Virus record (IMG/VR): IMGVR_UViG_3300021226_000025
Span: 1 to 56,046 of that record
Length of the DNA stretch: 56,046 nucleotides
Direction: 5' to 3' (one strand)
Source of the DNA: a virus
Taxonomy: Duplodnaviria; Caudoviricetes
A program made the position numbers and the translations under genes. Positions 1,759 to 34,317 of this stretch are shown one piece after another (within the stretch, counting starts at the first letter, position 1; every line of letters begins with the position of its first letter). The notes under the pieces are model-generated. The model was not told where the DNA came from. It worked only from the letters and a program-made list of their open reading frames with translations, and did not search any database.

Positions 1759-1795
1759 ACAGGGCAGACTAACCCTCTGCCCTGTTTCCCTTTTC
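1759..1795 (+). terminator. Hairpin/weak terminator
   Basis: ACAGGGCAGA/TCTGCCCTGT 10-bp stem plus pyrimidine tail. Confidence 0.6.
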
Positions 1796-1820
1796 CTCAA
1801 CATGTTCATAGGAGATAATC

Positions 1821-1958: not shown

Positions 1959-1959
1959 C

Positions 1960-2172: not shown

Positions 2173-2173
2173 C

Positions 2174-2278: not shown

Positions 2279-2451
2279 AACGACTACTGACCCGAATTGC
2301 AGAAGTCGTACTGACGATTCTGTTTGCCGTGTTCGTTGCCGTCCTGTTTGTCGAATGGCTTGCAGGATGTGGCGAAACGTATATTGATGCTAAAGGGGTG
2401 AGGCATCAATACGAATGTGTGTTCATCCATAACTTGACAACTAAGGAGTAA
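2275..2451 (+). CDS. Small membrane protein
   Basis: N-terminal TM segment; translationally coupled start. Confidence 0.7.
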   Translation: MKRLLTRIAEVVLTILFAVFVAVLFVEWLAGCGETYIDAKGVRHQYECVFIHNLTTKE

Positions 2452-2454
2452 ACC

Positions 2455-2643
2455 ATGAAGCGACTGTTCGCCCTACGTGATAGCCGTGGACAACTTGTCC
2501 GCAATGAGGACAACAAACAACCGATGTACTTTGCTGACAAGGATTCTGCTCGCAGATACCGCAGTAAGTTGACACAAGAAATCAATGTGTACTTCGTAAC
2601 CTACGGCGTTGACCATAAACTTTACAAAGGAACCCACCAATGA
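2455..2643 (+). CDS. Hypothetical protein
   Basis: AAGGAG RBS; overlaps ATPase start. Confidence 0.8.
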   Translation: MKRLFALRDSRGQLVRNEDNKQPMYFADKDSARRYRSKLTQEINVYFVTYGVDHKLYKGTHQ

Positions 2644-3626: not shown

Positions 3627-3674
3627 CCAACCAAGAGGGGCAACTGCCCCTCGCTTTTAGAAGGAGTGACTACT

Positions 3675-4523: not shown

Positions 4524-4533
4524 GGAGAACTAC

Positions 4534-17090: not shown

Positions 17091-19961
17091 ATGGACACGC
17101 TGAGTTTTTTGCAGCGAGTACTACCAAGTGAAGGACTGTATTGCATTGCTAGTTTTGAGGACGGAAATCCAAAACCACGGCACGGTTACTTTGACTCAGT
17201 AGAGAAACTCGCAAAGGTTTCACTAGCCTTAAATAGTAGGGGGCAGAACACATACTACGCAATCTCCACCTTCTTGACGAAGGAAGGTAGACGCAAGCAG
17301 GACAACGTGCAACTGACCAAGGTGTTGGCGATTGATGTTGACTGTGGCATTGGGAAGAACGGAAAGCCCAAACCTTTTGCCGATGCAAGCGAAGGTGCTC
17401 GGGCACTGGTTAAGTTTGTGCAAGCAGTTGGACTTCCGATGCCGATGATTGTTTCGTCAGGCAATGGTCTGCATACATATTGGGTGATGACTGATGCCGT
17501 GACTCCGGCCCAGTGGAAGCCACTGGCGAACGCACTTAAAGCGGCGTGTATCCAACATGGGTTCACACCGGACATTGGCGTAACAGGTGACAACGCACGA
17601 ATACTGCGACCCATTGGATGCACCAACCCAAAGGGCGGCAAGATAGCCACCTTGTTGCGGGATGCTCCTGATGTGGAGTACGACACACTTTGGCAAGTCC
17701 TGTCACCGTTTGCCTCAGGCTCATCCTATGAGCCACCCGAACAACAGACACGTACCAGTACGTTGTTGGATGCTATGGCGGTTAAGCACGAGTACGCACC
17801 TGCTAATGCGGACAAGATTGCGGAGAAGTGCCAGCAGATTAAATGGGGGACTGAGAACCAAGAAGATGTTTCAGAACCCTTTTGGTGGAAGTTGATGGGC
17901 GTAGCCGCCTACTGCAAAGACCCGATTGAAACGGCTATCAAGTGGAGTGAGAAGTACAGTAAGTTCAACCAACAGGAAGTTGTTAGCAAGGTTGAGAACT
18001 GGAAGGACGGCGCTACTGGCGCAACATGGTGCGAGAAGTTTTCGCTTGAGCGGCCTGACGGCTGTAAGGGTTGTAAGTTTAAGGACAAGATTAAAAGCCC
18101 GATTGCTTTGGGCACACAGTTTGCCGAGGTCAAATCAATGGCGGCATTGGCTGACCCGATTGCGGCACAAGTTCCATTGCCACGTGGGTTCAAGAGAACC
18201 ACGGATGGTATGAAGTATGTGATTGACGACACAGATGTTGATGTGTGTAAGTTCGACCTGTACCCGGTGGGCTATGGAAAAGATGAAGGACTTGGCTACG
18301 AGGTTGTTCGCTACATGTGGAATAGACCGCACGTTGGGTGGACAGAACTTGTACTGCGTCAAGCCTACCTGACTGATGGAAGTCGGGAGTTTTCCACTGC
18401 GATTGCTGACCAAGGCATCGTGCTTTTTAACAAGAACCAAACGAACTTTTTCCAAATGCTACTACGCTCATACATGGAGGAATTGAAGCAGAAACGAGGA
18501 TTGACTAATCTGTATTCGTCGATGGGTTGGAAGGACGACTACACACAATTTGTTCTTGGTAACACCCTGCTTCGCCGTGACTCCAACGGCTCTGTCACAG
18601 AAGAATCTGTGAACCTTGCATCATCCATCAACAAGGTGGGTGAGGATATGTACGCCTGTAAAGGCAACCTGCAAGAGTGGGTGAACTTCACCAGTATCTT
18701 GCAGAAGGGTGACCTCAAACTGCACAAGTTCCTGATTGGGTTTGCCTTTGCTACCCCACTACTCAAGGTCAGTGGACTCAAAGGGTTAACCCTATCTTTG
18801 TATGGCAAGACAGGCGGCGGGAAAACCCTAGGTCAGTTGATGATGCAGTCAGTGTGGGGCAACCCTGACTTACTCCACTTCGGTGGCAAGTTCACACAGA
18901 ACGGATTGTTCAGCCGCTTGGCAATGCACGGCAATCTGCCCATGACGGTAGACGAAATCACCATGCTCGACAAAGAGGAAGCGGGTGACATGCTCTACTG
19001 GATTTCACAGGGCAAGGACAAGGCTCGTTTGAACCGCAACGCCGAGGAGAAAGCAGTCAAGGAGTGGCAGACCACGATGACTGTATCGACCAACGAATCG
19101 TTCAGCAGTATGTTGTACGCAGGTGGTCACGCTACGGACGCGCAGTTGGCACGACTGATTGAATTCAACGTGCAACCTAACCCACTGTTCAATGACACCA
19201 GTAATGTGGGGCGCAAGATTCATGCGTTCCTCATGAACAACTACGGTGTGGCAGGGCGTGAGTTCATGAAACATGTCATGGGCTTGGGCGTAGATGTCAT
19301 ACGCAATATGTTGGAGCACAGTATCAGTGAGTTCCCCAAGAAGTACGGTGTTCAGTTCACAGGTGACGAACGCTTTTGGGAACTGGGAGTTATCCTGTCA
19401 GACCTCGGCAACCAACTTGCTACCGAATACGGACTCATCAAGTACGAGTACCGTGACGCAACTGTTTGGGCACTGCAAGAACTGGGCGCAATGAAAACCA
19501 CAGTGGCGGCAAACAAGGCTACATCATTCATGATACTGGGCGAGTTCGTCAAAGCACACATGGATTCCACTGTGACTGTCATGCACACCCCCGGACAGAA
19601 GCCTATGCGGGATAACAACCGACCATATGTTAATGATGTGATTGTCCGTTACGACCTGCATCGCAAGACGTATGACGGCATCTTTGAAAGCGGCTCTGTT
19701 CTGATTGAGCGAACCAAGTTGCGCCGTTGGCTATCCCAACGAGGTCATGACTACAAAGCGTTCTTGCGTGAGTTCGAGCAGGAAGGAATCATCGTGACGC
19801 CCAAGTCTGAGAAGGCGTACTTGGGTAAAGATATTGGCTTGAAGATTCCGCAGTGCTACGTTGTCGGCATCAACCTCAACCACCCTGAACTACAAGGGGT
19901 CTTGGATGATGCACAACAACCTATCGCTAACCTGATGGTTGGTCAGTTGCAAGCCGTTTAG
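17091..19961 (+). CDS. Primase-helicase (AEP/RepB-like primase + Zn finger + DUF927-like + P-loop helicase)
   Basis: IDVD, SSGNGLHTYW, ILRP; C...CKGC; GKTGGGKT, TVDE; start ATG 17091 after GGGGA. Confidence 0.88.
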   Translation: MDTLSFLQRVLPSEGLYCIASFEDGNPKPRHGYFDSVEKLAKVSLALNSRGQNTYYAISTFLTKEGRRKQDNVQLTKVLAIDVDCGIGKNGKPKPFADASEGARALVKFVQAVGLPMPMIVSSGNGLHTYWVMTDAVTPAQWKPLANALKAACIQHGFTPDIGVTGDNARILRPIGCTNPKGGKIATLLRDAPDVEYDTLWQVLSPFASGSSYEPPEQQTRTSTLLDAMAVKHEYAPANADKIAEKCQQIKWGTENQEDVSEPFWWKLMGVAAYCKDPIETAIKWSEKYSKFNQQEVVSKVENWKDGATGATWCEKFSLERPDGCKGCKFKDKIKSPIALGTQFAEVKSMAALADPIAAQVPLPRGFKRTTDGMKYVIDDTDVDVCKFDLYPVGYGKDEGLGYEVVRYMWNRPHVGWTELVLRQAYLTDGSREFSTAIADQGIVLFNKNQTNFFQMLLRSYMEELKQKRGLTNLYSSMGWKDDYTQFVLGNTLLRRDSNGSVTEESVNLASSINKVGEDMYACKGNLQEWVNFTSILQKGDLKLHKFLIGFAFATPLLKVSGLKGLTLSLYGKTGGGKTLGQLMMQSVWGNPDLLHFGGKFTQNGLFSRLAMHGNLPMTVDEITMLDKEEAGDMLYWISQGKDKARLNRNAEEKAVKEWQTTMTVSTNESFSSMLYAGGHATDAQLARLIEFNVQPNPLFNDTSNVGRKIHAFLMNNYGVAGREFMKHVMGLGVDVIRNMLEHSISEFPKKYGVQFTGDERFWELGVILSDLGNQLATEYGLIKYEYRDATVWALQELGAMKTTVAANKATSFMILGEFVKAHMDSTVTVMHTPGQKPMRDNNRPYVNDVIVRYDLHRKTYDGIFESGSVLIERTKLRRWLSQRGHDYKAFLREFEQEGIIVTPKSEKAYLGKDIGLKIPQCYVVGINLNHPELQGVLDDAQQPIANLMVGQLQAV

Positions 19962-22900
19962 TCGGGGATGCCCGCAAGGGTTTCCTCGTCTACACCATAG
20001 AGGCGAAGCATGTCTTTCGCTTCCATGCGACCGCTCTTAGCCGAGGACTTGAGTGCACGGATAGCCAATGGTTTGCTTGCTTCTCGGTAGGCTTGTGACA
20101 AGCCACGGTCAAAGTTGCGCATCTCAAGGCGAGTGCCTTTGGTGTCCTCGTTCCAGTCAGACACAAACTTCTTAACCTGAGCCAAGCGTTCAGTGTCGTT
20201 CTCCAGTCTTGCCGCCACACCTTCACGGGTGAGTTCGGTTTTAATCATGGACATGTAGGCTTGTTCCTGTCTGTCTGCTGACATCCAGTCCATCTGCATT
20301 TGCGCACGACTTGGGTAGAAGCCCATTGCCTTACCAAGCAACTCCCATGTGGAAACATTCTTGGCGACCACATAGCCTTTGTTGTCTAGGATTGCGCCAG
20401 TGTCTGCGTACTTCCACGCATCACCCACGTTCTTAATGGCTCGGATAGGGCTATCTCTCAACAACTCTATGGGTGACTGACGACCAGTCGCCACAGCAGG
20501 CAGCGTACTTGCACCCCAGTTGAGCGCACCCACGATGAATGAGGTAGGTGCACCTGCTAAGTTCTCAACTTCACGCAGGATTTCATCCTTAGTCGCTGAG
20601 GGTTTGAGGATGCCAGTTCCGGGGATGATGTCGCCAAGACCCAAGCGGTTAGAGAACGACCAACCAGTTACATGGTCAAGCAAACCACGCATCATGATTG
20701 GGTTAATTTCAGCGGCAAGTTCCGCACCAAATACATCGGCAGTCAAACGAGCAAACTCTTTCTCGACTGAACCAATCTTTAAGCCAAGGCGCTGGCAGAG
20801 TGCGTCAAGAATGTCCAACAAGTCGTCAGCACCCGGTAGTCCACGTACCCCAGACAGGAGTAGCAACGAACCTATCATGATGATTCTGCCTTCGTAGTTC
20901 ATATTTTTGAGCAGTTGAATCATCATGATTGGGTACTGCTTGTACATGTAGATGAAGGCTTGCACACCACCACGGAAGAACGCAGGGCGGTTGTACTGAG
21001 CGTAGTCACCTTGCGTAGCGTCCAGTGCTTTGGTGGACATCTCACGTGCTTTTACGTCCGCAATGGATGGGTCACCATGCGTCGCCATCTGCCGCTCATA
21101 CTCACCACGATATGCTGCTAGGAGTGTGACACGGCGGTTGACCTGCTCGGAGTACGAGAAGGGAAACATCCACGTTTGAATAAATTTTTGGACAGTTGGG
21201 TTGCCAGTAATCTTGCGACCCTTACTGGTTCCGGTCATAGCGTTAAACGATGCGGCATCCAAGCGTTGCTGTTCGGTCATGTCACGTAGGAAACGCAACT
21301 CACTACCAGTCAGTCCATCCTTGGTGTACTTCGCACCATTCTTTTCCTCTACCTCAAACTCTTTCAGACGAGCATCAAGCCATGCTAAGTCAGCATACTT
21401 GGGGTTTGCCGTGTTCATCAAGAACTGGGTCAGCAACTTACCTGCCTTACCTGCGCCCAAGCCAACACCGAAGCCAGTCTTAGGGTTGAACGAGGAGAGG
21501 TACGCCCATGAGTTTGTCGGCAGTGAAAGCACTTGCGTGATGCCAGTTGCAATCGAGCCACCTAGTTGGAATATAGCCGCCCATGTACGAGTAGCCACAC
21601 TCCACTGATTGTTAGACCAAATGTCATCAGCGTGAATAATGTCTCCAGTTGAGTCCATCCATGCAAGCATGGACTTGGCACGCTCGTTGTAGTACTGACC
21701 ACGTTCGATACGGCGACCGTCTTTGGTGTACTCAACTACGTTGTCTTGGAAGAACTTCTCTTGGAAGTATTCACGAGCCGCAACTTCTTTGGCCTCCCCC
21801 GTGGCAGATTCCCACTTGGCTTTCAATGTTGCAAGACGTTCAGGGTTGTCACTCCAGTTGTCAGTATCGTCAAGCACTTCGTCAAAGCGGTGACGGTATT
21901 CTTTGTTGGCTGCAACATAGGCTTGCTGCTCCAAGAACGCAGACGAACTACGGACAATATCTTTATCCCAGCCGGGTACACCTGCACGCTGCAAGTTGGA
22001 GCGAGCACGGGAGTTCTGACCTGAGACTTTCTGCACAAGAACTTGGCGCACCTCAGGCGACAACTGGATACCCAAGCGACTGAGCGAGTACATGACCTCA
22101 TCGTAGTGGAGTACGTCCACCAAGTCAGGAGTCTGACGGGTAACTGATGCAACGGCTTCGAGGCGAACCTTTTGCAGATTGCCTTTCTCGTCACGCATGT
22201 CGTACTCACCATTGAGCATGGCGTTCAGTTCTTCTTGGTACTGCTCAGCATCTTTCTGTGTGCCTGTCTTGTAGAAAGCCAGTGAGTCTTGTTGACCATC
22301 AGCCAACTTAACTGGGTATCTAGTGCCGTCCTTATCGGTTGTGTATGCCTGCACACGGACTTGCCACTCGCCTTCACGAGTAAGCGGTACGTAAGCACCT
22401 GCGATTGAACGCTTGGCGTACAACTGGTCGTCATTGATAGAAGCCGCAAACATTGAGCGTTCTTCGATGCGATGCTCCAGTGCCCAGATAGAACTGTTTT
22501 TGATTGGGTCTACCTCAGGGTCAATCTGCGTCTGCAACTTAGACCGCATACTCTTAACAAGCGTCTCTACCTGCGTGGGGGTATACCCCGGCATCATACC
22601 TTTGAGGTCGTTCAATGCTAGGTCGGAGTAAAACGCACGGGCGAACTTCATACGCAACCACTCAAGGGCATCCTTATTGGAAGTATCCAACAACTTGAGG
22701 CGGTTGCCTTGGAACTCTGCACCTTTCATGCGCATCTCATCAAACATGCCAGTGGCATCCTCAATAAATCTACGCTCAACATCCGTAAGTGGTGTAGACT
22801 TCTTAAATGCACCCCGCACCCCTGCGGAGATGGCCCTCTTTTGCTCGTAGACTGCGCCAATGTACTTGCTTCGCAGAACGTCAATATGGCTCATTGCCAT

Positions 22901-25900
22901 AGTTTCTACGAACTCGTTATACATCTTCCACTCAACGCTATCTTCCGTGAGGTCTTTGAACCACTCGGGGGTAGGAGCCATGTTGGGCACTTCATACATT
23001 GGCTCTTTCATACGCTTGGTGTACAAGCGTTTGGTCTGCTCAATGTCTTGACTGAATTTCTTCTCGTCTCGCTTACGCTCAAGCGCATATTCAGCCTTCG
23101 TATCCTCATCAGTTTCAGCGGCAATCTTTTTATCGACACGAGCAAAGGCTGCGTCACGATATTTTTCAATCTTGGCAATGACTGCATCTCGCTCGGTCGC
23201 AAGTTCTTGACGGTATTCATCAGTCATCGGTACTTCTTTTGTACCCTGTTGAACTTGGAAGCCTTTCTTAAAATCCTCCACAGACAAACGGCCTGCATCG
23301 ACCAGTGCTCGGAACGCATCAGGGTTTACATCCAAGATACCGGAGTCTGGGTCAAAAAACACAGGGTTGTCCATCTTGTCCAACTGTGAGTCGGAGATGG
23401 AGTTCATCTTAAAGAGCGAACCGTACGCAAGTAACTCACCCGCACGAACTTGTTTCTCCATGTCTGCGCCTTCACCTAGGCCCAGAAACTTGGCTTTGTG
23501 AGCAGTCGCCGTACCATCCGCATACTTCTGCTTGTACTGGTTCTGCTTTGCACCTTTGAGTTGGAGCAGTTCAAAAATCTTGGAGAAACCTTTGCTCTTG
23601 CGGGCTAGGTTATCCATCGTCTGAATACCATCAAGGACAGACTGCGCTACGTTTGTCACGTTAGACATTACGCCTTTGCCTTGCTTAACGGCTTCGGCTG
23701 CACGATTCTTAGCGTCAATGATGTCGCTTACAGCACGAGACAGACCACCATGAATAGCAGCATTACGGTTGAGGTTACCCATTGCGTAAGTCAGCGCACC
23801 CTGTGGAGCCATTGCAGCAAAGCGCAACACTTCCACATTGGACTGGTCGTTCAACAACGACTGGTCAATTTCTTTGAACAAGCCTGACAGGTTGACTTCG
23901 CTGCGGCCTGTGCCTTGACGCACGTACTTGCGTGATAGTCCAATGAGATAGCGAGCCGCATCGTCGTTGAACTTCAAGCCTATCTTGTTGAGTTGGTCTT
24001 TGACCCAGTTCCAAAAACGCAAGATGGTGTTGGTATCCACGGCAGCGGCACGGTCAGCCAGTACTTCTTCAACCGCCTCAAGGAACGGGATACCCCGCCC
24101 TGCTGCGTACACCTCTGCTGCCTGCGTCAGTTGTGCATCTGAATCAGCAACAAGTTTGAGGATGGCGTTCAGTGCACGGTCGTTGAATAGACCACGAAAG
24201 CCAACGTGACCAAGGGTCTCGTGAGCAATAATGAAGCGGGCTTGTTGTTCTGACTCGATGAAGTCTGCAAACAGAACTACGTTGTTACCCCATGCCATAC
24301 CTGCGGCATTTACGTGCTCGATGTCACCAGCCTTGCGTGCCTTGGCAGCAGCGGCAAACAACGAGGGGTTAGCCTTTTGCATGTCAGCCAGATTGGAGAA
24401 CACGTGGACAGTAGGCTTACGGGCAAACTTAGACACCACACGTGCAGCAAACAGACGCAGTGGGCCAGCCTTCATAGGTTCAGTTGGGCGACCGTCTACA
24501 CGGTAGAACTCTAGGTCACCACGGTCACTACGTGCATTGTCGTACAGTGGGTCATACTGGAGGTCATCCAGTGTGGTCTGTGTTTCTTCATCCTCAAGGT
24601 CACGCAATGCCTGTCTAGCATCCTTGTGCTTCTTGACAAATTCTTCTTTAGACATCTTGCCTTCTTCTTTGGTTGCCAACACAAAGTTACTTGTACCGGG
24701 AACTTGCACGATGATAGGTTCACCGTCGGAAGTAAAGAAGTCTTTAATGCGTCCACGACCGCTGACTTCAAAGTTGTCGTTGTCTACATCCACGTAGCGG
24801 ATAAGCGCAGCACGGCGTAACTGGGCTTTGTCCAGATAGCCATTGCGGTTGTTGATGAGGTCAGCCATGCGAATCTCACCAAGGTTCTCCGTAGGAGTGT
24901 TGACTGGCTTATTGACCACGGCTTCTTGTTTAGTCTTGGCTCCGGGCTGACGAACCAACGCTTGAACATTGGCATCATTCAACAACCCGTGGTCAGCCAA
25001 CAAGGAGTACAAGCGAGACTTAGGCCCGATGCTCTCCTCGTTGAGTGCCACTTCCCTTAGTGCGGCTATGAAGTCCCGCTGGGGAATACCTCCGTCTGCC
25101 AAGAACCTTTCGGATGCAGTACGGAGATATGCTTTGACGTTTGAAGTCAATGCGTAGGCACTGACGATTTCAAACAGAGCCTCTGCGTAAGCAGCAGGAC
25201 TCTTTGTAGTTTCGATGGTCTCGATAGCCATATCGAGTTCTTGGTTGGCAAACTTAGTTTCTTCGCTTGCCTCTTGCACGCCTTTCTTTGTGGTGCTCTC
25301 CACCACAGCAGGCTGCTGAGTTGTACCAAGAAGTTGTCCGACCATTGCCGCCAGACCACTTGGGCCTTTCTGCAACTTAGCGGCTTTGGCAGGAGTAGCC
25401 TTAGCCTTTGCCTCGGACTTTTTTTCTGCACCCTTGGCAAGTTTCTTTTTGCCACCCTTCGGAGGAGTCGGTTCAGTCGGCTTAACTGGAGCCGCAGCCG
25501 TGGTGACTGGTGCGTTAGTTACGGCTTCTTGGGTTTGCTTCTTCCCGCGCTGGAGAGACTTGCCGCCACCGCCTGTTTGAGTGCCGCCGCCTTTGACTTG
25601 GGTCGTGGGCTGGTTCCCAGTTTGCCCCCCGCCTTGTACTCGTCCATTATCTTCTTGACGTTGGCTGACACTACCTTGTTGCTGCTTCCCTTTTTGAGTG
25701 GCATTTGCTTTTCCTTTCTTGAGCACTGCGGCTTTCGCCTTAGTTGCGGTTACTGCCGTAACAGGCGCACCTGTCGGCGGAATCTGTACAGCACCCTGCT
25801 GCACAGTCGGAGTAGGCACGGCTTGGCGTGTACCCGCACTCTTGAGTGCTGCCACGGTAGGCTGACCTTGTTGCGTGAACAATGACAACTGACCTGCACG

Positions 25901-28093
25901 TTGGAACTGTCCGGGGGTAGGAGTACCTTGCACAACTGGAGCGGGTGCAGGCAGTTGCGTGCCGACACCACGGCGCAAACCTTCAGCACGTGAAGGCACT
26001 GGCGCTTGTCTGCGGTTGAACAAGGGCATCTGCTGCGGCTGCCGTACAGGCAACGGACGCATAGGAAGTTGTTGCTGTGTGACTGGCTGTTGCTGCTGGG
26101 CCGCAAAGTCCAACTGTCGTTGATTCTGAGCCTGCACCGCCAGACGTTGCATGTCGGCTTCACGCTGTGCTTGTTCCTGAGCCTGACGCTGTGCGTAGGC
26201 TTCTTGGATTTGGCGTTGCTGAATAGCCGCCTGCAACTGGTCAGCCATTGCAGGATTGAACGCAGGTTGCTGGTTCGTAAACCCAACACCACTTGGAGCA
26301 GGAGGTGCGAACTGCAATGCCATTTGCCGTGGGTCAACAGGGACTTGAGGCGAAGGCAATGCCAAGCGGTCAGACGGAGGAGCAGTTACGGCTTGTTGTT
26401 CGTACTGCTGGGTCTGAGGATTCCATACCATGCGGGGAGCAAGTTCGCCCGTTTGCTGGCTACGTTGCTGTAACTCACCAATGGTTGCACCGCCAAGGTC
26501 AAGCACACCTTGTGCACCACCGAACTGACCGGGGGCTACCTGCCCTGTAAAGATACGGTCAGTAGGTACGGAAGGACGGACTGCGCCATCAGCGCCAGCC
26601 ACAAAATCAGGGCGTGCACCCATACCACCGACTTGGGTTGGGCCACCTACGGGAGTACCCGGTGGAGGTGGAATGATTGTCAACGCAGTGGATGGAGCAG
26701 GAGGCTCAGCAGTCTGGCTTGGATTCAGCAGGTTGGTAGGCTCTTTGGTAATCGGGCCACGGCGTAAGTTAGCCGCTGCACCAAGCACACCGCCAGTACC
26801 AAAACCTGCTGCAAATGATTCGTAAAGACGTTTCTGTATTTCAGGCGCAGAAAAGTCCTGCCCTGTGTTGGCAATCAGCAAAGCCTCTTGCCCAAGTTCA
26901 GTCGTACCTTCAGCAGTACCACCAGCAACAAAGCCTTTACCTGCACGCTTGAGTAGTTCTGCACCACGCAGACCTTGTGTGCCTAGGAAGGTTTCGCCTT
27001 GAATATCACGGAGGGCTTTGCCGCCCTGACGAGCCAGACCGCCTGTGCCAAACAAGCGAGAGGCAAGCAGGAACTCAGGCAAAGATTCAAGTGCTGCATA
27101 CGGAACAGCGGAAGCCAATGCGGAAAGACGATTGTCTTGCCCTTGGTCACGTTGCTCACCATAGATGTCAGCCACACCCGTGGCGTAGTTCTGCGCCGTA
27201 GTGAAGATGGTTGCACCAGCAATACCAGCAGCCTCACGCAGTATCTTGGTTTCAGCAGCGTTAAGTACTTCACCTGCGGCTTTCTTTTTGATAGCCGCAA
27301 GAACAGATTGTTTGAAGGTTTCTTTACCAGCCAGACCAGCGAGGGCTGCACCACCACCTGCAAGTGGGCCACCAGCGGCTGTACCTGCAAAGAAGCCTGC
27401 GGCGGCAGTAGCAACAGACTCCAGAATATTTGGGCCTTGTTGGGCTACGGTTGCGACCAGCCAGTCAATAGCAGTGTTAGCGTCCTTGACATCGGAGAAC
27501 TCACGAATGTAAGGCGAGGACTTCTGTAAATCACCACGAATGGTGTCAGTGCCTACCTGAGCATCGACGATGCGCTGACCAGTTTCTTCTGCACCTAAGA
27601 ACTGCAAGCCTCGACCCGCAAGCATTTGCATATTGTCCAGACCAATGCCAAAGTTCTTCTTGGCAAGTTTGCCTAGGCCGGGGTTCTTGATAGTGCTGAG
27701 GTATTGTCCGTAGGAGTTAGGGTCAAGTTGAATCCAGTCGCCGCCCTGTGGCATACCGACACCGGGCATACTCAAGCGGGCTTCGCTTTGCAACGCCAGT
27801 GCATCATCATCAGCAGCAAATTGTGCGCCGTTTACAAACAGAGACTTGGTAGACGGGCTGTATGCCACAACCGGAGGACGTTTAATCTCCGGCATGGTGA
27901 ACTGGCTCTGCTTGACCAACTCCTGCCCAAGAACTGCCGTGTCCACTTGGGAAGGCATCATGTTCTCTGTTCCGCTACGTGGCATCTGCGAGAAACCAGC
28001 ATAGGGATTGAGCACAGTGTTTAAGTCTGCGCCCATGCTACCTAGGTTGACATCTGCAAATGACAGTCCAGCGGGAGTTGCAGGATTCGCCAT
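19958..28093 (-). CDS. Giant (2711 aa) polyvalent internal virion/ejection protein
   Basis: HETLGH metallopeptidase-like motif (24206-24223), YVPLTREG PLxRFG-like motif (~22370), hydrophobic Gly/Ala N-region; last gene of virion arm. Confidence 0.85.
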   Translation of the reverse strand: MANPATPAGLSFADVNLGSMGADLNTVLNPYAGFSQMPRSGTENMMPSQVDTAVLGQELVKQSQFTMPEIKRPPVVAYSPSTKSLFVNGAQFAADDDALALQSEARLSMPGVGMPQGGDWIQLDPNSYGQYLSTIKNPGLGKLAKKNFGIGLDNMQMLAGRGLQFLGAEETGQRIVDAQVGTDTIRGDLQKSSPYIREFSDVKDANTAIDWLVATVAQQGPNILESVATAAAGFFAGTAAGGPLAGGGAALAGLAGKETFKQSVLAAIKKKAAGEVLNAAETKILREAAGIAGATIFTTAQNYATGVADIYGEQRDQGQDNRLSALASAVPYAALESLPEFLLASRLFGTGGLARQGGKALRDIQGETFLGTQGLRGAELLKRAGKGFVAGGTAEGTTELGQEALLIANTGQDFSAPEIQKRLYESFAAGFGTGGVLGAAANLRRGPITKEPTNLLNPSQTAEPPAPSTALTIIPPPPGTPVGGPTQVGGMGARPDFVAGADGAVRPSVPTDRIFTGQVAPGQFGGAQGVLDLGGATIGELQQRSQQTGELAPRMVWNPQTQQYEQQAVTAPPSDRLALPSPQVPVDPRQMALQFAPPAPSGVGFTNQQPAFNPAMADQLQAAIQQRQIQEAYAQRQAQEQAQREADMQRLAVQAQNQRQLDFAAQQQQPVTQQQLPMRPLPVRQPQQMPLFNRRQAPVPSRAEGLRRGVGTQLPAPAPVVQGTPTPGQFQRAGQLSLFTQQGQPTVAALKSAGTRQAVPTPTVQQGAVQIPPTGAPVTAVTATKAKAAVLKKGKANATQKGKQQQGSVSQRQEDNGRVQGGGQTGNQPTTQVKGGGTQTGGGGKSLQRGKKQTQEAVTNAPVTTAAAPVKPTEPTPPKGGKKKLAKGAEKKSEAKAKATPAKAAKLQKGPSGLAAMVGQLLGTTQQPAVVESTTKKGVQEASEETKFANQELDMAIETIETTKSPAAYAEALFEIVSAYALTSNVKAYLRTASERFLADGGIPQRDFIAALREVALNEESIGPKSRLYSLLADHGLLNDANVQALVRQPGAKTKQEAVVNKPVNTPTENLGEIRMADLINNRNGYLDKAQLRRAALIRYVDVDNDNFEVSGRGRIKDFFTSDGEPIIVQVPGTSNFVLATKEEGKMSKEEFVKKHKDARQALRDLEDEETQTTLDDLQYDPLYDNARSDRGDLEFYRVDGRPTEPMKAGPLRLFAARVVSKFARKPTVHVFSNLADMQKANPSLFAAAAKARKAGDIEHVNAAGMAWGNNVVLFADFIESEQQARFIIAHETLGHVGFRGLFNDRALNAILKLVADSDAQLTQAAEVYAAGRGIPFLEAVEEVLADRAAAVDTNTILRFWNWVKDQLNKIGLKFNDDAARYLIGLSRKYVRQGTGRSEVNLSGLFKEIDQSLLNDQSNVEVLRFAAMAPQGALTYAMGNLNRNAAIHGGLSRAVSDIIDAKNRAAEAVKQGKGVMSNVTNVAQSVLDGIQTMDNLARKSKGFSKIFELLQLKGAKQNQYKQKYADGTATAHKAKFLGLGEGADMEKQVRAGELLAYGSLFKMNSISDSQLDKMDNPVFFDPDSGILDVNPDAFRALVDAGRLSVEDFKKGFQVQQGTKEVPMTDEYRQELATERDAVIAKIEKYRDAAFARVDKKIAAETDEDTKAEYALERKRDEKKFSQDIEQTKRLYTKRMKEPMYEVPNMAPTPEWFKDLTEDSVEWKMYNEFVETMAMSHIDVLRSKYIGAVYEQKRAISAGVRGAFKKSTPLTDVERRFIEDATGMFDEMRMKGAEFQGNRLKLLDTSNKDALEWLRMKFARAFYSDLALNDLKGMMPGYTPTQVETLVKSMRSKLQTQIDPEVDPIKNSSIWALEHRIEERSMFAASINDDQLYAKRSIAGAYVPLTREGEWQVRVQAYTTDKDGTRYPVKLADGQQDSLAFYKTGTQKDAEQYQEELNAMLNGEYDMRDEKGNLQKVRLEAVASVTRQTPDLVDVLHYDEVMYSLSRLGIQLSPEVRQVLVQKVSGQNSRARSNLQRAGVPGWDKDIVRSSSAFLEQQAYVAANKEYRHRFDEVLDDTDNWSDNPERLATLKAKWESATGEAKEVAAREYFQEKFFQDNVVEYTKDGRRIERGQYYNERAKSMLAWMDSTGDIIHADDIWSNNQWSVATRTWAAIFQLGGSIATGITQVLSLPTNSWAYLSSFNPKTGFGVGLGAGKAGKLLTQFLMNTANPKYADLAWLDARLKEFEVEEKNGAKYTKDGLTGSELRFLRDMTEQQRLDAASFNAMTGTSKGRKITGNPTVQKFIQTWMFPFSYSEQVNRRVTLLAAYRGEYERQMATHGDPSIADVKAREMSTKALDATQGDYAQYNRPAFFRGGVQAFIYMYKQYPIMMIQLLKNMNYEGRIIMIGSLLLLSGVRGLPGADDLLDILDALCQRLGLKIGSVEKEFARLTADVFGAELAAEINPIMMRGLLDHVTGWSFSNRLGLGDIIPGTGILKPSATKDEILREVENLAGAPTSFIVGALNWGASTLPAVATGRQSPIELLRDSPIRAIKNVGDAWKYADTGAILDNKGYVVAKNVSTWELLGKAMGFYPSRAQMQMDWMSADRQEQAYMSMIKTELTREGVAARLENDTERLAQVKKFVSDWNEDTKGTRLEMRNFDRGLSQAYREASKPLAIRALKSSAKSGRMEAKDMLRLYGVDEETLAGIPD
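25519..25704 (-). CDS. Nested 61-aa basic protein in an alternative frame
   Basis: AAGGA RBS 7 nt before ATG; MPLKKGSS...KQAVAASLSSAG resembles a widespread small phage protein family. Confidence 0.7.
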   Translation of the reverse strand: MPLKKGSSNKVVSANVKKIMDEYKAGGKLGTSPRPKSKAAALKQAVAASLSSAGRSKPKKP

Positions 28094-28103: not shown

Positions 28104-31100
28104 TTACGGATTTACTAGAAGCCCAGCGACAGGTGGTCTAACCCCTGCCTTCTCTGCTGCGGGGCCGAAGATTGGCATACCAGCAGTAGGCATACCACTT
28201 CCGAGCACAAACAGACTTCCGGGCGCTTTGTTGATTGTTTCACCATTCAGGGTAATAGTACCAGCAGACATATCGACAACGCCAATTCGTGTGCCGTCGT
28301 TGGAGACTATCAGAGCCTTACCGCTACCATCAGGCGACATTGTGACTTTGACACCAGTGGCGTTCTCAAATGCTGTCTGAGCCATCTTAATGTTGCCAGC
28401 GTTAATGTCTTTGGAAATATCAGCAATAAGTTGACGGTTGATTTTGTTGGTGTCGATATAGATTTGTCCGAGAGTTTTTGCACGCTCACCAGTAACGGTC
28501 TCCTCAATCTTGAGGCCGGACTCAAACGATTTCTTGAACATGTACTCTTTGAGCGCAGTCTTGCTTGCCAGATACTTGGCGTCCATATCTTCTTTGGCAT
28601 AACCAATAAGGTCGGAACCAGACACGCCTTGTGCCAAGACTTTGCCGTTCGAGAACAAATCCCACTTACCGTCGCTACGTGGTTGCAGTTGGAGTTTCTG
28701 TCCGGTGAACTGACTCCACACACCAACCATACGAGTTGGGTCACCAAAGCGAGTGAACTCAGCCACACCACGGTCGCCCATCATGCGGTACAGGTCAAGG
28801 TCGGTGGAGTAAATCTTGCCGATGTATTCCAAAGCCTTGGCAGGGTTACCACTGTTAGCAGCGTTCAGTGCCAGTTGACGGGTGTAGTCCCGCATCTGCA
28901 ATGCTTGCGTTGTGAACTGGTCGTATACCCTAGGGTCAATCGTGCCAGCCTCAGGCATTTTGATTTGCTTCTTCTCAACGTCCGCAACAGCAGGTGCGCT
29001 TACAACAGGCGCAGCGGCGGCAGCAGGAGGGGCAGCAACGGCAGGAGGGGCAGCGGCAGCAGGTGCATTTAGAACCGGAGCAGCAGCAACTTGCTGTGTG
29101 CGTGCAGTACGACGACTGTACAAGTCCTGATAGTTCTTAGGCTGTAAATGCAGACCCATTGGGTCTTTTGCAACCGATGGATACAAGTCCATCAAGCGAC
29201 CAGTGAACTCAACACCAGCAGAAGTGGTTGCTTGCTGTAAGAACTCATTCTGTCCAGTGGTCGGATTCTTCTGCGTACCGGGGCCAGTGCCAAAGACAAC
29301 GGGATTACCACCCTGCGATTTGACAAACTCAATTTGCTGGGTAACAAAACTTTGCTCGGCTGGGTTGTTTGGTAGACCCGTACCAAGATACACAGTCACA
29401 CCTTGCAGACTATTCTTGGATGCGTAGTCTTGCAACATAGACAGCACAGCCTTAGGACTTGCACCAGTCTTGTAAGAACCTTCAAGTTTGTTGGCTTTAG
29501 CAAAACCTTCAGCCAAACTATCGCCAATGGCAATAGTCTTGGCAGGTGCAGCAGGAACAGCGGCAGCAGGAGCAGCGGCAGCAGGAACAGCCGCTTGTTG
29601 AGTACCAGACAACGCGGTTAGTGCGGCGTTGTACAGTGCCACGTAACCACGGTTGTAGTCTGCGTTCATGACTGTACCGTCATGCGCATTGAGTGGGCGA
29701 CCAAACTGTTTCACTTGGTCAGCATTACCTTGGTATCCAGCACCCCACAAGTTCTTCGGGTTGCCAATGTACTCGTTGTACTTAAGCACCAACAGACCAG
29801 CATCAATCTTCCCAGCAGTGTTGAACTGCATATTGCGGGCAGCCTCAACCTGCGCAGGAGGAATCTTGTACTTCTGAATGTTTCCTGCGTTGGTGTACCA
29901 GTTCTTCATCAACTGGAATGTGTCAGGCATAACTTGAAGCGGGCCACTTGCACCAGCACCGCTATCTGATTTTGCCGCACCAAAGTTAGACTCAAGACCA
30001 TACACAGCCAGAGCCGCAGCAGGGTCTACTTGGAGTGCATCCGCACGAGAAAGAATCTGTTTAGTTTCTGCTTTCTCCAGAATCTTAGGCAGCATCGGAG
30101 CCAACTGCTCGACACGCTTATCAGTAACCTTAGCCGAGTTGGTGACAAACTTCTCATCAAACTTCTTGGGCGCAAGTTTTCCGCCAACAGCCTCAGGTGC
30201 TGCGGGCAGTTGTTCTGTGCGTGTCTCGGCTTGGCGACGGGCGTCACGTATAGGAGCCTCTGACATAAAGGCAGCGTAGAAACCCATTGGGTCAAGTTTG
30301 GCTTGCGCCAAAGCCTGAGGGTTCTGCATAAAGTATGCAAGCGACTCGTCGCTACGGAACCAGTTCATTGCCGCAGTAGCGATGTCTCGTTTCTCAGCCG
30401 TAGTCTTGTCGTCAAAGAAGTATCCATACAGTTGCCCAGACGGAGCACCTGCCACACCATACTTACCAATGGCAAGACCAGTGGCAATCTGTTCACGTTG
30501 CTGAATAATTGCGCTACGTGCTGCACCTTCTTGGCGAGACCGTTGGAAACCAGCGGAGTTCGGGTCAATCTTAGGAATACCTTCAGCATCAACCAAACCT
30601 GCACGACTAGGAAGATTGGGGTTGAAGTCAGGCACAGTCAAATGTGCTGCCTGACCTTGCCCGTATTTACGTACGGCATCAGGAAGTTGCAACCCAGTGC
30701 GTTTCTGCCAGTCTGCAATGTTTTGGTCGGGGATAGGTGAACGCAACGGAATGTTTGTACCCGGAACAGTGGGGACATCTGTCCGTGCTTCAGGCAATGC
30801 AACTCCAGCAGAGGAACTAGGCGCAGGTGCAGGTGCAGGTGCAGGTGCAGGTGCAGGTGCAGGTGCAGGTGCAGGAGCAGGTGCAGGTGCAAGAGCCGCA
30901 GGAGCCGGAGCCTCTACTGGAACTTGGCGAACATCCGTGCTGTAAAACGGGTTGTAGTTCTGCGCAGGATTAAAGTTAAGCCCAGCAAGCATTTGCTGGG
31001 TTGTCTGGGTATCTTGCTGGCGGTTCAACTCCTCACGGTTAATCGCCTGCATCCGCATTTCTTCAATGCGTGATTGCCATTCAGCACGTTCTGCATCTCT

Positions 31101-31157
31101 CTGGCGACCAGAGATAATGCCCATGCTGCTGGCGGTTTGACTTAGATTGAGCGCCAT
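28104..31157 (-). CDS. Internal virion protein with lytic transglycosylase and SGNH hydrolase domains
   Basis: SLT: LESNFG, GPLQVMPDT, AGYQG; SGNH: IGDSL, VYLGT, DPMGLH. Confidence 0.85.
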   Translation of the reverse strand: MALNLSQTASSMGIISGRQRDAERAEWQSRIEEMRMQAINREELNRQQDTQTTQQMLAGLNFNPAQNYNPFYSTDVRQVPVEAPAPAALAPAPAPAPAPAPAPAPAPAPAPAPSSSAGVALPEARTDVPTVPGTNIPLRSPIPDQNIADWQKRTGLQLPDAVRKYGQGQAAHLTVPDFNPNLPSRAGLVDAEGIPKIDPNSAGFQRSRQEGAARSAIIQQREQIATGLAIGKYGVAGAPSGQLYGYFFDDKTTAEKRDIATAAMNWFRSDESLAYFMQNPQALAQAKLDPMGFYAAFMSEAPIRDARRQAETRTEQLPAAPEAVGGKLAPKKFDEKFVTNSAKVTDKRVEQLAPMLPKILEKAETKQILSRADALQVDPAAALAVYGLESNFGAAKSDSGAGASGPLQVMPDTFQLMKNWYTNAGNIQKYKIPPAQVEAARNMQFNTAGKIDAGLLVLKYNEYIGNPKNLWGAGYQGNADQVKQFGRPLNAHDGTVMNADYNRGYVALYNAALTALSGTQQAAVPAAAAPAAAVPAAPAKTIAIGDSLAEGFAKANKLEGSYKTGASPKAVLSMLQDYASKNSLQGVTVYLGTGLPNNPAEQSFVTQQIEFVKSQGGNPVVFGTGPGTQKNPTTGQNEFLQQATTSAGVEFTGRLMDLYPSVAKDPMGLHLQPKNYQDLYSRRTARTQQVAAAPVLNAPAAAAPPAVAAPPAAAAAPVVSAPAVADVEKKQIKMPEAGTIDPRVYDQFTTQALQMRDYTRQLALNAANSGNPAKALEYIGKIYSTDLDLYRMMGDRGVAEFTRFGDPTRMVGVWSQFTGQKLQLQPRSDGKWDLFSNGKVLAQGVSGSDLIGYAKEDMDAKYLASKTALKEYMFKKSFESGLKIEETVTGERAKTLGQIYIDTNKINRQLIADISKDINAGNIKMAQTAFENATGVKVTMSPDGSGKALIVSNDGTRIGVVDMSAGTITLNGETINKAPGSLFVLGSGMPTAGMPIFGPAAEKAGVRPPVAGLLVNP
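30823..30888. repeat. Hexamer tandem repeat (GCAGGT)x11 encoding an (AP)n linker
   Basis: 8 perfect + 1 variant + 2 perfect units. Confidence 0.95.
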
Positions 31158-31169: not shown

Positions 31170-32861
31170 TTAACCAATCTTGATGGTCGTGCCGGATGCT
31201 TTTGCTCCACCAGTAAAGCCACCAAACAAGTCCCCAATGTCTCCAGCAGCAGCACGACGGCGGCGGTCAGCAGCGTCATACATGTTGCCAAGGTAAGAGG
31301 CATACTGCATGTTAGAAGCCTCTGGCCCGACGTTGGGTAGATTCGATAGACCTGCTTGCTTAAGCCTAATTCTGTTTTGCTCCGCAGTATCCATACCTTG
31401 CAGATACGCAGTCTGAGCACCAGTATCAATGCCTAAGTTGAAGCGACGTTCTTCAGCGCGGCGTAGACCAGCACGACGAGAGTCGATACCACGCAAGGCT
31501 TCAGCCTTAGCGCGAGCACCTGCGTTCTGAACTTGCCGAGAAGCACGTAGACCAAATGTCTCAGGGTCAAAGTAGCGAGACTCACCAGCCAACTCCAACG
31601 CTTGAGAAAGTTTTTGGTCAAACAGTGCTTTGTTGGTAGTACGCAGATTTTCAAGTTCAGTTTTTTGCTGCGCAACCAAGGCTTTTTCTTCTTCGCTCAA
31701 GCCATCACCAGCAATCTGGGAACCAACCAGTTGCCCAGCCGCACGGAGAAGGAGGTCAGCCTGACTTGATGGGTTAGTAAGTTTCTGCTTAAGTGCTTCA
31801 GACAATGTAGCAGGAGCCGCTGCTTGCGCAGGGCCACCAGACGTACCAGCAGTACCACTTGTGCCACTTGTACTTGCACTTGCGGGCGCAGCAGTTACGT
31901 TAGAAGCGTAGGCCGGACTGAACGCTGCACGAGCAGCAGCCGCATTTTCTGCAACAGCCGACACTGCCTGCCCAGATTGCGCATACGCAGGAGAGGTCTG
32001 AGTAGCAAAGTCAACACCAGTAGTGCCCGCATTAACAACAGGTACATTCAGTCCAGCGTTGTAGTAACTGGATGTGCCAAGGTTGGCAGCATTACCACCC
32101 AATGCAGTAGGTGTGTTAACAGACAGTGTCCCAGACGCTTGGATAGCGTTGGCTGCGTTTTGTACGTTTCCTGCACTACTTAGTTGCGCAGCCAACTCAC
32201 TGTTAACCTGACCACCGTAAGCAATAGCAGATGGGTCAACAGCCGTTCCATTAGCCAGCAAGTAACCTTTGGTAACTGGGTCGTAAGTAGCAATAGCAGA
32301 AGTACCATCACCCAAGTTTGCAATACCAAGGGTAGTAGTTGGTGTACCTTGTACTGGGCCAACGTAACCGGGTGAACCGGGAGTAGTCGCAACAGGTGTA
32401 CCACCCGCACTACCTGCAAGTTGGGGTGCGCTAAAGTATCCAGAGATACCTGAACCCAAACCGCCCATCAATGCGCCACGGCCTACATCACCACCAGTCG
32501 CCGCAGCAGCAACCGCGCCAAGACCAGCACCAACAATCGCAGAGCCAACCACAGAGCCAACAGTAGCCGCAGTAGCAGCAGTAAGACCAGCACTTGCCGC
32601 AGCACCAGCAATCGCACCGGATACACCGATGGACGCAGCAATCGCAGGAGCGACGAACGGAACAGCAACCGCAGCAACAACTGCGACTACTGCTTTAAGT
32701 CCACCGCCACCACCTTGCGGGCGAATACCCATTGCTTTAACCAAAGCCTTGCGCTGCATAGGCGGGATGTCCCCACCAAATGCAGCCTCAGGTAAATCAG
32801 GAATACCCATCATTGCCATCTGTTTGGCACTGGGCATACGAACAAAAGTTGTTGCGCTCAT
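31170..32861 (-). CDS. Internal virion/ejection protein with Gly-Ala membrane-active region
   Basis: Long hydrophobic Gly-zipper N-region, helical C-terminus; position among ejection genes. Confidence 0.75.
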   Translation of the reverse strand: MSATTFVRMPSAKQMAMMGIPDLPEAAFGGDIPPMQRKALVKAMGIRPQGGGGGLKAVVAVVAAVAVPFVAPAIAASIGVSGAIAGAAASAGLTAATAATVGSVVGSAIVGAGLGAVAAAATGGDVGRGALMGGLGSGISGYFSAPQLAGSAGGTPVATTPGSPGYVGPVQGTPTTTLGIANLGDGTSAIATYDPVTKGYLLANGTAVDPSAIAYGGQVNSELAAQLSSAGNVQNAANAIQASGTLSVNTPTALGGNAANLGTSSYYNAGLNVPVVNAGTTGVDFATQTSPAYAQSGQAVSAVAENAAAARAAFSPAYASNVTAAPASASTSGTSGTAGTSGGPAQAAAPATLSEALKQKLTNPSSQADLLLRAAGQLVGSQIAGDGLSEEEKALVAQQKTELENLRTTNKALFDQKLSQALELAGESRYFDPETFGLRASRQVQNAGARAKAEALRGIDSRRAGLRRAEERRFNLGIDTGAQTAYLQGMDTAEQNRIRLKQAGLSNLPNVGPEASNMQYASYLGNMYDAADRRRRAAAGDIGDLFGGFTGGAKASGTTIKIG

Positions 32862-33346
32862 TTCATAGCCTCCGTTAATTCAAGTCGCATGTGTGTATAC
32901 ACAGGCTTAAAACCGTATTGAGAAATAACCCGCTCCATTGCTGGGGACACCCATCCCTCAATGACTCGGACACTATTCATATACGCCCAACCACAAAGCA
33001 TCTTCCAATACTTTGCATGTAGAGCGTCTAAATCACTACCACCAAGCGCAACGATGTTCATTGCAGGCAGTTTGGGGTAGTGAATAATTTCTAACACCAG
33101 TGCTAACTTCACACTCTTAGTGATTGTTTTATCACATTTGACAACAAATATATACATCTTTCCTTGTAGGGCAGCGTTGTATATATCGTCAATCGTCATC
33201 TCACCGTGCATCGCACGTTTTACACATCGCTCTAACAGAGGTTTTGTAGCAGGCCAATACGTGTCGAAATGCTCCTTCGTAGAAAGAAGAAGTGGTTCAA
33301 ACTCATCGAGAGGTATCGGGTCAAACCCTGCTGGTAGAGTACTCAT
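32858..33346 (-). CDS. Degenerate GNAT-like protein (T7 gp13-like position)
   Basis: MNIVALGG...IEGW...YGFKP pattern; lies between tail and ejection genes. Confidence 0.55.
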   Translation of the reverse strand: MSTLPAGFDPIPLDEFEPLLLSTKEHFDTYWPATKPLLERCVKRAMHGEMTIDDIYNAALQGKMYIFVVKCDKTITKSVKLALVLEIIHYPKLPAMNIVALGGSDLDALHAKYWKMLCGWAYMNSVRVIEGWVSPAMERVISQYGFKPVYTHMRLELTEAMK

Positions 33347-34317
33347 GCGTCTTGGTATTTCTTGAGAAGTGCGTCGAAGAAGTCTTTACCTTTAGCCTGT
33401 ACCACTTTGGCAGGGATTACATACTCACCTGCGGATACACGAATAGGAATACTATCGCTAGTACCAGTGCCGGGGCCACTAACTTTACCGCCCTTTGCAG
33501 CATGGTCACCCATGTGTACGTAACCACCAGAAGCCATGCTCATCATAGGCTGGTCGCCCATCGGAGCACCACCCATCGGAGCACCACCTGCACCTTGTTG
33601 AGTGCTACCTTGCACCGCACGAATAGCAAGCAGCAGCACAAAGATTAGACCTTGGTCGTATTCAGGGGACAAATCTTCTTCAGTCGCCATACCTTGTTGA
33701 ATAGCAAACTGGCGAATGTAGGTATACATCTCAGGGTTTTGAAGTGCAGTCATAGCAAGTTGACCTGCCATGTTGAGTTCCTCAGGGGTAATCTCTCCGG
33801 CTTGGAAGCCAGCCATGATGGCTTGTTGAATACGTGCGACTTCTTGGGGTTGCTTGCGCATGAACTCTTGGAGTTGCATCTCGATTGCTTGAGGGCTTAG
33901 ACGCTCTTGAGGTTTACCAACACCAGAAGGGCGCATAGGCATACCACCAGCACCGACCATACCGCCTTCGGCGTAAGTAGGTTGGAGACGGAAGTCAAGA
34001 ACAGGTGCACTAGGGTTTGAAGCCACTGTGCCAGTTTGAATTGGAGCCGCAATGTTTTGCTCGTTGACAGTGACGTTAGGTGTACCTGAACCCAATAGAC
34101 CTTGCAACGATGCAGGAAGGTCAAGCGACGTAGTAGGTGCGGGAAGTTCCGCACCCATACCCGGCGCAGTCGGGGTAGGTGTCATTTGCGGCGCAGGAAC
34201 ACCAGTTAAGTTGGTAGCCAAAGCGCCTTGCACCGTAGGCTGTCCGGCCTGTGGGACGGACGACGGAGCCTTGGGAGCCATATTTAGAATCTGAAGAACT
34301 GGGTTATTGCCTGCCAT
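33343..34317 (-). CDS. Virion-associated protein with AxGGxV repeats
   Basis: YAEGGMV, MASGGYV, AKGGKVSGPGTGTSDSIP...GEYVIP. Confidence 0.75.
   Translation of the reverse strand: MAGNNPVLQILNMAPKAPSSVPQAGQPTVQGALATNLTGVPAPQMTPTPTAPGMGAELPAPTTSLDLPASLQGLLGSGTPNVTVNEQNIAAPIQTGTVASNPSAPVLDFRLQPTYAEGGMVGAGGMPMRPSGVGKPQERLSPQAIEMQLQEFMRKQPQEVARIQQAIMAGFQAGEITPEELNMAGQLAMTALQNPEMYTYIRQFAIQQGMATEEDLSPEYDQGLIFVLLLAIRAVQGSTQQGAGGAPMGGAPMGDQPMMSMASGGYVHMGDHAAKGGKVSGPGTGTSDSIPIRVSAGEYVIPAKVVQAKGKDFFDALLKKYQDA

Follow-up and report, generated by a model that had tools for sequence, protein, structure and literature searches.

Internal core proteins of the phage T7 gp16 type are large, are encoded after the tail genes and carry an SLT-type domain that is presumed to open the cell wall at ejection; T7 gp16 is not known to have an esterase. 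Peptidoglycan O-acetylation is a bacterial defence against lysozyme and a control on the cell's own transglycosylases. Lytic transglycosylases (LTs) form a 1,6-anhydro bond and are blocked by O-acetylation at C6 of N-acetylmuramic acid (MurNAc), as are lysozymes, and wall-acetylating Gram-negative bacteria need the SGNH esterase Ape for LT action, according to the passages on this subject in PMC6174289. In Neisseria, Ape1 and the LT LtgA were reported to form a complex and to stimulate each other (PMC7083599). We analysed positions 1 to 56,046 of the IMG/VR virus record IMGVR_UViG_3300021226_000025 (this whole 56,046-bp stretch is called the window below), in which a 1017-residue protein encoded on the minus strand combines an LT domain with a compact SGNH domain. 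We lean, with modest confidence, towards a reading in which the SGNH domain de-acetylates peptidoglycan and the adjoining LT then cleaves it; its esterase activity, its substrate, its delivery and its link to the host we infer.

Like Neisseria Ape1 and LtgA, the window protein pairs a predicted serine esterase of SGNH fold with a family-1 LT, and the window LT matched LtgA best, both in structure and by profile. Unlike Ape1 and LtgA, which are two periplasmic housekeeping proteins, the window pair is predicted in one phage polypeptide. Ape1 is described as having a CBM35 module (bioRxiv 10.1101/2021.09.23.461501), for which the window esterase of about 140 residues has no room. By analogy, the window SGNH domain would work as Ape1 does with LtgA, but we do not count it as a member of the Ape1 (CE3) family: it has no CBM35 module, and Ape1 was not among the profile and structural matches listed. 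The C-terminal domains of OatA and PatB have the same fold with Ser/His(/Asp) and Asn blocks, OatA-C measures 153-155 residues, and both act on MurNAc C6; unlike the window domain, as we read it, they are transferases fed by a membrane partner, as outlined in PMC6174289.

SGNH domains are known on virion proteins, namely tail fibres (PMC3853054) and Tal (gp59) of Staphylococcus aureus phage 80alpha and Gp44 of phi11 (PMC7048315, PMC5380687). Tal and Gp44 likewise carry an SGNH/GDSL domain on a virion protein thought to aid wall penetration, with an enzymatic activity that is not established in the parts of these sources that deal with it. Both are baseplate or tail-tip proteins of Gram-positive siphophages, and phi11 Gp44 pairs its SGNH domain with an endopeptidase; compared with them, the window SGNH domain is far smaller, stands beside an LT and is encoded within the block of internal-protein genes of a genome of podophage type. 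A literature search, with subscription journals and supplements outside its scope, found no published LT-SGNH ejection or tape-measure protein and no phage peptidoglycan de-O-acetylase.

Domains and conserved residues of the 1017-residue protein

The two domains, the linkers around them and the residues discussed below have the following positions.

28104..31157, minus strand: whole open reading frame (ORF) of 1017 residues (P0001), from the ORF listing and its translation
29595..30110, minus strand: LT domain (SLT/GH23-like), residues 350-521, from Pfam, profile, AlphaFold and VIA-align
29991..29993, minus strand: codon of Glu389 in G-L-E-S-N-F-G, predicted catalytic acid, invariant in 31 aligned homologs
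29538..29594, minus strand: Ala/Pro-rich linker 1, residues ~522-540, from the translation
29118..29540, minus strand: compact SGNH domain ('d2'), residues 540-680, from AlphaFold, Foldseek, VIA-align and profile
29517..29519, minus strand: codon of Ser547 in block I (G-D-S-L), predicted nucleophile, 99% conserved
29463..29465, minus strand: codon of Gly565, probable oxyanion glycine of block II, located in the model in the loop that follows strand 2, 96% conserved
29367..29369, minus strand: codon of Asn597, oxyanion Asn of block III (G594-L-P-N597), 99% conserved
29148..29165, minus strand: block V, D665-P-M-G-L-H670, with the predicted catalytic His (H670 99%, D665 85% conserved)
28980..29102, minus strand: Ala/Pro-rich linker 2, residues ~686-726, from the translation

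The original prediction, made from the letters alone, had placed a fusion of an LT and an SGNH esterase at 29120-30060, corresponding to residues 367-680. This span covers the motifs but stops short at its upper end, since some 50 nt of the LT domain lie beyond it. The motifs themselves were found where they had been reported: LESNFG occupies residues 388-393 (29996-29979, with the Glu389 codon at 29993-29991) and GPLQVMP begins at residue 405, GDSL lies exactly at 29525-29514 (residues 545-548), VYLGT begins at residue 589 and DPMGLH covers residues 665-670 (29165-29148). The Ala/Pro linker said to join the SLT and SGNH domains is present in the translation.

Profile and fold place the LT domain in family 1 of the lytic transglycosylases, as a divergent but typical member. 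Pfam SLT (PF01464) stayed below its cut-off of 21.3 bits, scoring 16.0 bits on the whole protein and 19.7 bits (E 6.4e-4) on the domain alone, and phmmer searches of the PDB sequences with the whole protein or with the LT domain alone gave nothing relevant. A profile built from 18 LT homologs matched Neisseria LtgA (5mpq, E 3.9e-5), whose E-S and G-L-M-Q-V-M-P were aligned with E389-S390 and G405-P-L-Q-V-M-P. We modelled residues 350-521 with AlphaFold from a 31-sequence alignment (predicted local distance difference test, pLDDT, 91.4). The model has the lysozyme-like helical fold of the family, and the sequence has its catalytic Glu in E-S together with G-x-x-Q-V/I-M. In VIA-align, LtgA came first (Z 15.0, root-mean-square deviation 2.8, 141 aligned residues), ahead of MltC (14.2), Pseudomonas Slt (14.0) and Slt70 (13.9), then MltF and MltE. 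The LT and SGNH domains were modelled separately, a joint alignment having misaligned relatives that lack the SGNH domain across the esterase region.

The SGNH domain was modelled with a pLDDT of 97.1 and a predicted template modelling score (pTM) of 0.91 as a three-layer alpha/beta/alpha fold with a parallel sheet. Foldseek gave 58 matches in the PDB at E<=1e-3, with SGNH/GDSL esterases at the top. Of the 50 entries listed by VIA-align, 47 were named as GDSL/SGNH esterases, lipases or acyltransferases and three were design scaffolds; their Z scores ran from 12.3 to 14.6, and the alignments covered 124-143 of the 145 residues. Among them were OatA-C (6vjp, Z 13.7 over 135 aligned residues; 5ufy, 13.6), PatB (8tlb, 13.5), TesA-type enzymes (4jgg, 14.2; 1ivn, 13.5), an acetyl-xylan esterase (13.7) and a sialate O-acetylesterase (13.4). 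Look-alikes found with a language model formed small, mostly viral clusters named SGNH or GDSL. The fold is that of the superfamily, and all four of the residues that give it its name (S, G, N, H) are present. With about 140 residues the domain is among the smallest complete-looking SGNH enzymes, which makes it an attractive minimal model of the fold.

Membership of the SGNH superfamily is given by fold and motifs and not by the curated Pfam models, Lipase_GDSL (PF00657) and Lipase_GDSL_2 (PF13472), which the window copy does not match. A profile of 42 SGNH sequences matched PDB entries weakly, the best of them being GDSL/SGNH proteins (4ppy, E 0.0037), followed by 4c1b, 4iyj, 6nkd, 4hf7, 3p94, 4rw0 and PAF acetylhydrolase. 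In the 4c1b alignment GDS fell on GDS, the G..N block on G-T-N-D, and D-g-v-H-P on D-G-L-H-P. The sole PHROGs match of the 1017-residue ORF, phrog_19273 (function not known), covers residues 532-652.

Conservation was read from an alignment of 159 near-full-length SGNH domains that are 28-79% identical to the window copy. G545, D546 and G594 were conserved in 100% of them, S547, N597, G623, N637 and H670 in 99%, G565 in 96% and D665 in 85%. Gly565 is probably the block II residue, judging from the secondary structure of the model. Two departures from the classical blocks had been noted in the original prediction and both were seen again. Block III has G-x-x-N spacing instead of G-x-N, and its segment, when aligned with 4c1b, is offset by one residue from the G-T-N-D block there. 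Block V reads D-x-x-x-x-H here, compared with the usual D-x-x-H in most relatives, where the block is D-x-V-H-P. A chance occurrence of the GDS motif was ruled out by this conservation together with the fold.

These departures bear on whether the SGNH domain is catalytically dead here and serves as a spacer, a wall-binding module or a structural module. We regard this as quite improbable: the non-canonical D-x-x-x-x-H and G-x-x-N blocks, the missing Pfam GDSL match and the existence of close relatives without the domain would suit it, but conservation of the Ser, Gly, Asn and His at 96-100% over such divergent sequences points to selection on catalysis. Some carbohydrate esterases of SGNH fold work with a Ser-His pair alone.

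The residue in front of the oxyanion Asn bears on a further alternative, an acyltransferase like OatA-C or PatB that would acetylate peptidoglycan, for example against host autolysins or superinfecting phages. OatA has Val490 next to its oxyanion Asn491, and Val or Ile at this place favours transfer over hydrolysis. The window copy has Pro, and the family has Ser in 60%, Pro in 31% and Ala in 3%. Hydrolysis agrees better with Pro or Ser than with the Val or Ile of the OatA transferases, which we count as a weaker point. OatA-C (6vjp, 5ufy) and PatB (8tlb) are among the tied best structural matches, and OatA-C, at about 155 residues, is similarly compact; yet no MBOAT or AT3 donor partner was found in the protein or among the 64 other ORFs (25 of 28 Pfam families listed), and acetylation of the wall would block the fused transglycosylase (PMC6174289, in the passages on LT inhibition). 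We hold the acyltransferase to be highly improbable.

Recurrence of the SGNH domain beside glycan-cutting enzymes

As a mobile cassette, the SGNH domain stands repeatedly beside at least four families of enzymes cutting the bond between MurNAc and N-acetylglucosamine (GlcNAc) and beside a peptidoglycan-binding domain, and rarely beside peptidases. A search with residues 360-670 gave 102 proteins of 559-1780 residues, of which 42 had the SGNH domain and 60 did not; 40 of the 42 carriers also had SLT, as scored with a local hidden Markov model (HMM). The closest relatives, P0007 (84% identical) and P0006 (86%), lack exactly residues ~545-690. Both ends of this deletion lie inside the Ala/Pro linkers, which may be recombination-prone joints. 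The parts of the protein outside the two domains and their linkers are the following.

30111..31157, minus strand: N-terminal region, residues 1-349, no credible Pfam match, about 80% identical in P0007
30819-30914, minus strand: near-perfect (Ala-Pro)n run, residues ~82-113
28107..28979, minus strand: C-terminal domain, residues 727-1017, conserved, no credible Pfam match

Over the C-terminal domain, P0006 and P0007 share 87-94% identity with the window protein, and another 66 homologs share 24-33%. We defined as orthologs the 68 proteins having this domain; all 68 have SLT and ten have the SGNH domain. In six orthologs the SGNH domain is joined to a canonical PF01464 SLT and not to the SLT type of the window. 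In the 32 non-orthologous carriers (~780-1740 residues) the SGNH domain stands at the very start of the protein or around residue 150 or 425, and SLT follows it in 30 of them. Over all retrieved proteins with both domains (n=84), SLT precedes SGNH in 55 and follows it in 29; the median gap between the two is 21.5 residues.

When a 139-residue SGNH query was run against 1.84 billion proteins, 154 cluster representatives fell within E<=1e-3; of these, 21 reached E<=1e-10 and 13 reached E<=1e-30. We examined 140 more remote representatives for an SLT-like domain, again by local HMM. It was present in 0 of 31 proteins of up to 260 residues, 10 of 37 with 261-600 residues, 16 of 38 with 601-1000 residues and 18 of 34 above 1000 residues. 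Many of the short stand-alone forms begin with leaders resembling signal peptides or those of lipoproteins (alignment read by eye), and action outside the cytoplasm fits such N-termini.

Pfam was run on 75 representatives of 261-1000 residues. SLT was found in 21, Phage_lysozyme2 in nine, PG_binding_1 in four, Lipase_GDSL_2 in just three (best E 1.2e-4, with P0112 and P0122 below its cut-off) and Peptidase_M23 in two; VgrG3-like C, Hydrolase_2, T4SS, VanY, SLT_3, Phage_lysozyme, Peptidase_M15_2, Lipase_GDSL and Transglycosylas were found once each. SLT, Phage_lysozyme, Phage_lysozyme2, the VgrG3-like C-terminal domain and Hydrolase_2 are families of enzymes that cut the MurNAc-GlcNAc bond. Peptidases occur in four of the 75 (M23 in two, VanY and M15_2 in one each). 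P0111 has the order SGNH, PG_binding_1, Phage_lysozyme2. In P0147 the SGNH domain (residues 513-646) is followed by Phage_lysozyme (residues 674-800), and this protein is 89% identical to an 892-residue protein that occupies the tape-measure position in a Helicobacter pametensis prophage.

The domain company also bears on two other substrates. The SGNH domain could deacylate another envelope glycan, such as the O-antigen of lipopolysaccharide, capsule or exopolysaccharide, and be linked to the LT only in that both act on the envelope. This seems unlikely to us. SGNH domains are indeed known in phage tail fibre and spike proteins (PMC3853054; bioRxiv 10.1101/2022.12.27.521992, in the portions on these proteins), and sialate O-acetylesterases and acetyl-xylan esterases score like OatA and PatB (Z 13.4-13.7), but here the domain belongs to a protein of the internal or ejection block and not to a fibre. 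It lies at the short median distance from SLT given above, in either order, it is fused with PG_binding_1 and three other lysozyme families, and the 14 Pfam families in the 75 scanned relatives include no depolymerase or tail-fibre family (0/14).

Alternatively, the domain could be a lipase, lysophospholipase or thioesterase that acts on membrane lipids or on the acyl chains of lipoproteins and so aids passage of the channel, which we consider distinctly unlikely. Enzymes of the TesA/TAP type are among the best structural matches (4jgg, 1ivn), ejection proteins have two membranes to cross, and the neighbouring 563-residue ORF has a long Gly/Ala-rich hydrophobic stretch. Against this, the scores are tied with those of carbohydrate esterases, all co-occurring catalytic or binding domains that Pfam found in the 75 relatives are peptidoglycan-acting, with no lipid-related domain among them, and the fusion with PG_binding_1 points to the wall.

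We also looked for the family among sequenced phages and replicons. With the whole protein as query, tblastn against 50,697 phage records gave a single weak match, to the Helicobacter pametensis prophage, and when two stand-alone relatives served as queries, the only addition was Synechococcus phage S-H38. The latter is a T4-like cyanophage (MW117965.1, L006) with a hypothetical ORF of about 1196 residues at 1198-4788 that holds a partial match to the SGNH family, 40.5% identical over 84 residues of P0123 (E 2e-6). A plasmid collection gave no match. Giant proteins of roughly 4800-5100 residues, namely P0169, P0198 and P0210 (4807-5076 residues) and those of phrog_19273, have the SGNH domain at residues ~550-680, and some relatives with an N-terminal SGNH domain carry PF18760 besides SLT; these giant and PF18760-containing proteins look like multi-enzyme 'polyvalent' injected proteins.

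The proposed de-acetylation step

In the mechanism that we propose, the 1017-residue protein would bear its two enzymes on flexible Ala/Pro tethers. The LT would cut the MurNAc-GlcNAc bond with formation of 1,6-anhydroMurNAc, a reaction for which a free C6 hydroxyl is required. The second enzyme would be a minimal SGNH serine esterase with Ser547, His670 and probably Asp665 as catalytic residues and an oxyanion hole formed by Gly565 and Asn597; in the periplasm it would strip 6-O-acetyl groups from MurNAc, after which the tethered LT could open the wall for DNA entry. The esterase would be optional, being acquired or dropped within the linker, and its presence would presumably depend on whether the host O-acetylates its peptidoglycan.

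De-acetylation followed by cleavage is favoured because the SGNH domain adjoins glycan cutters and PG_binding_1, and because of the biochemistry of Ape1 and LtgA. Two further points agree with it, with less weight. The only example with a cultured host is the Helicobacter prophage, and PatA-type wall modification contributes to lysozyme resistance in H. pylori, as reported in PMC3517862. Within the window, the only other recognised wall hydrolase, a single Peptidase_M15_4 found by Pfam among the 64 other ORFs (in the same list of 25 families), cuts peptide and not glycan; it is likely the endolysin. M15-type peptidases act on peptide and are unaffected by O-acetylation.

Several observations weigh against this reading. 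Peptidoglycan-directed SGNH enzymes, thioesterases and lysophospholipases, and sialate and xylan esterases are tied within about 1 Z unit, and because of this tie the fold alone does not give the substrate. Ape1 and OatA-C had been suggested for structural comparison at the outset: OatA-C was matched at Z 13.7, and Ape1 is neither among the 17 profile matches nor among the 50 structural entries listed, though it is not thereby excluded. Asp665 stands at His-5 instead of His-3, and the window copy (residues 530-668) matches no Pfam family, GDSL included, even at E<=10. The link of the SGNH domain to glycan cutters is strong but not universal, as 65 of 109 remote representatives longer than 260 residues have no SLT-like domain by local HMM and a further 31 representatives are short stand-alone forms. 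In PHROGs, the 1017-residue ORF has no 'internal virion protein' match, and gene order is the one line of evidence from which its putative packaging into the virion is deduced. The relatives in cultured phages are only the Helicobacter prophage and Synechococcus phage S-H38, and patterns from the close subfamily and the stand-alone subgroup found no relative in 185,579 species genomes.

The original prediction had described a two-step tool, de-acetylation and then cleavage, for penetrating protected walls. Its two domains held up by fold and by conservation of the catalytic residues, and the adjacency to glycan cutters speaks for it; a substrate specific to peptidoglycan was not separable from the others by structure. 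We put forward only tentatively, and with more doubt than conviction, the broader proposal that O-acetylation is a barrier to phage DNA entry that is answered by a plug-in SGNH de-O-acetylase cassette, which would travel among ejection proteins, tape measures and tail lysozymes by way of their Ala/Pro linkers. Whether the cassette is present or absent in ejection proteins that are otherwise 84-86% identical would then be a determinant of host range that tracks wall acetylation. If this is true, O-acetylation also counts as a barrier to phage infection, and the cassette is a portable counter-measure and a host-range marker. Should the domain be active on O-acetylated walls, it would make a useful partner for engineered lysins against lysozyme-resistant, acetylated bacteria.

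Phage type and neighbouring genes

The 56,046-bp record is 100% complete according to CheckV. Its portal is akin to those of HMO-2011-type podophages (Puniceispirillum HMO-2011, Roseobacter CRP phages and Pelagibacter HTVC103P) at 24-29% identity and is 34% identical to that of Rhizobium RHph_TM phages, and Pfam found SU10-type portal and adaptor domains among the window ORFs. The window is best explained as a podophage of about 56 kb related to the HMO-2011 and SU10 types.

The structural block on the minus strand has ORFs of 873 (phrog_511, 'internal virion protein'), 324, 162, 563, 1017 and 2711 residues, in this order. Related contigs of about 55 kb (L004/L005) keep the gene order, with 794, 339/331, 169, 508/527, 962/996 and 2808/2855 residues. 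The 1017-residue ORF is placed after the tail genes in this conserved block. We call its product an ejection protein because of this position and its transglycosylase domain, and presume from gene order that it is virion-borne; no homology to a characterised ejection protein was detected in PHROGs.

Directly downstream of the 1017-residue gene, at 19958-28093 (minus strand), lies the 2711-residue ORF, which has no Pfam match at E<=0.01; H-E-T-L-G-H, a possible metallopeptidase-like motif, can be read in it by eye. Just upstream, the 563-residue ORF (31170-32861, minus strand) includes, close to its N-terminus, a long hydrophobic run rich in Gly, Ala and Val. This ORF matches nothing in PHROGs or Pfam and may be a membrane-inserting ejection protein. 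Pfam assigned other ORFs of the window to a DUF2201_N/DUF2201 metallopeptidase-VWA pair, a 2OG-Fe(II) oxygenase, a family A DNA polymerase, DUF927 and an SNF2-related helicase. In the 324-residue ORF (33343-34317, minus strand), the final ~50 residues match a segment common to many 'tape measure' and 'endolysin' PHROGs (phrog_3547, E 3.3e-11), which looks like a small conserved module and not a whole domain.

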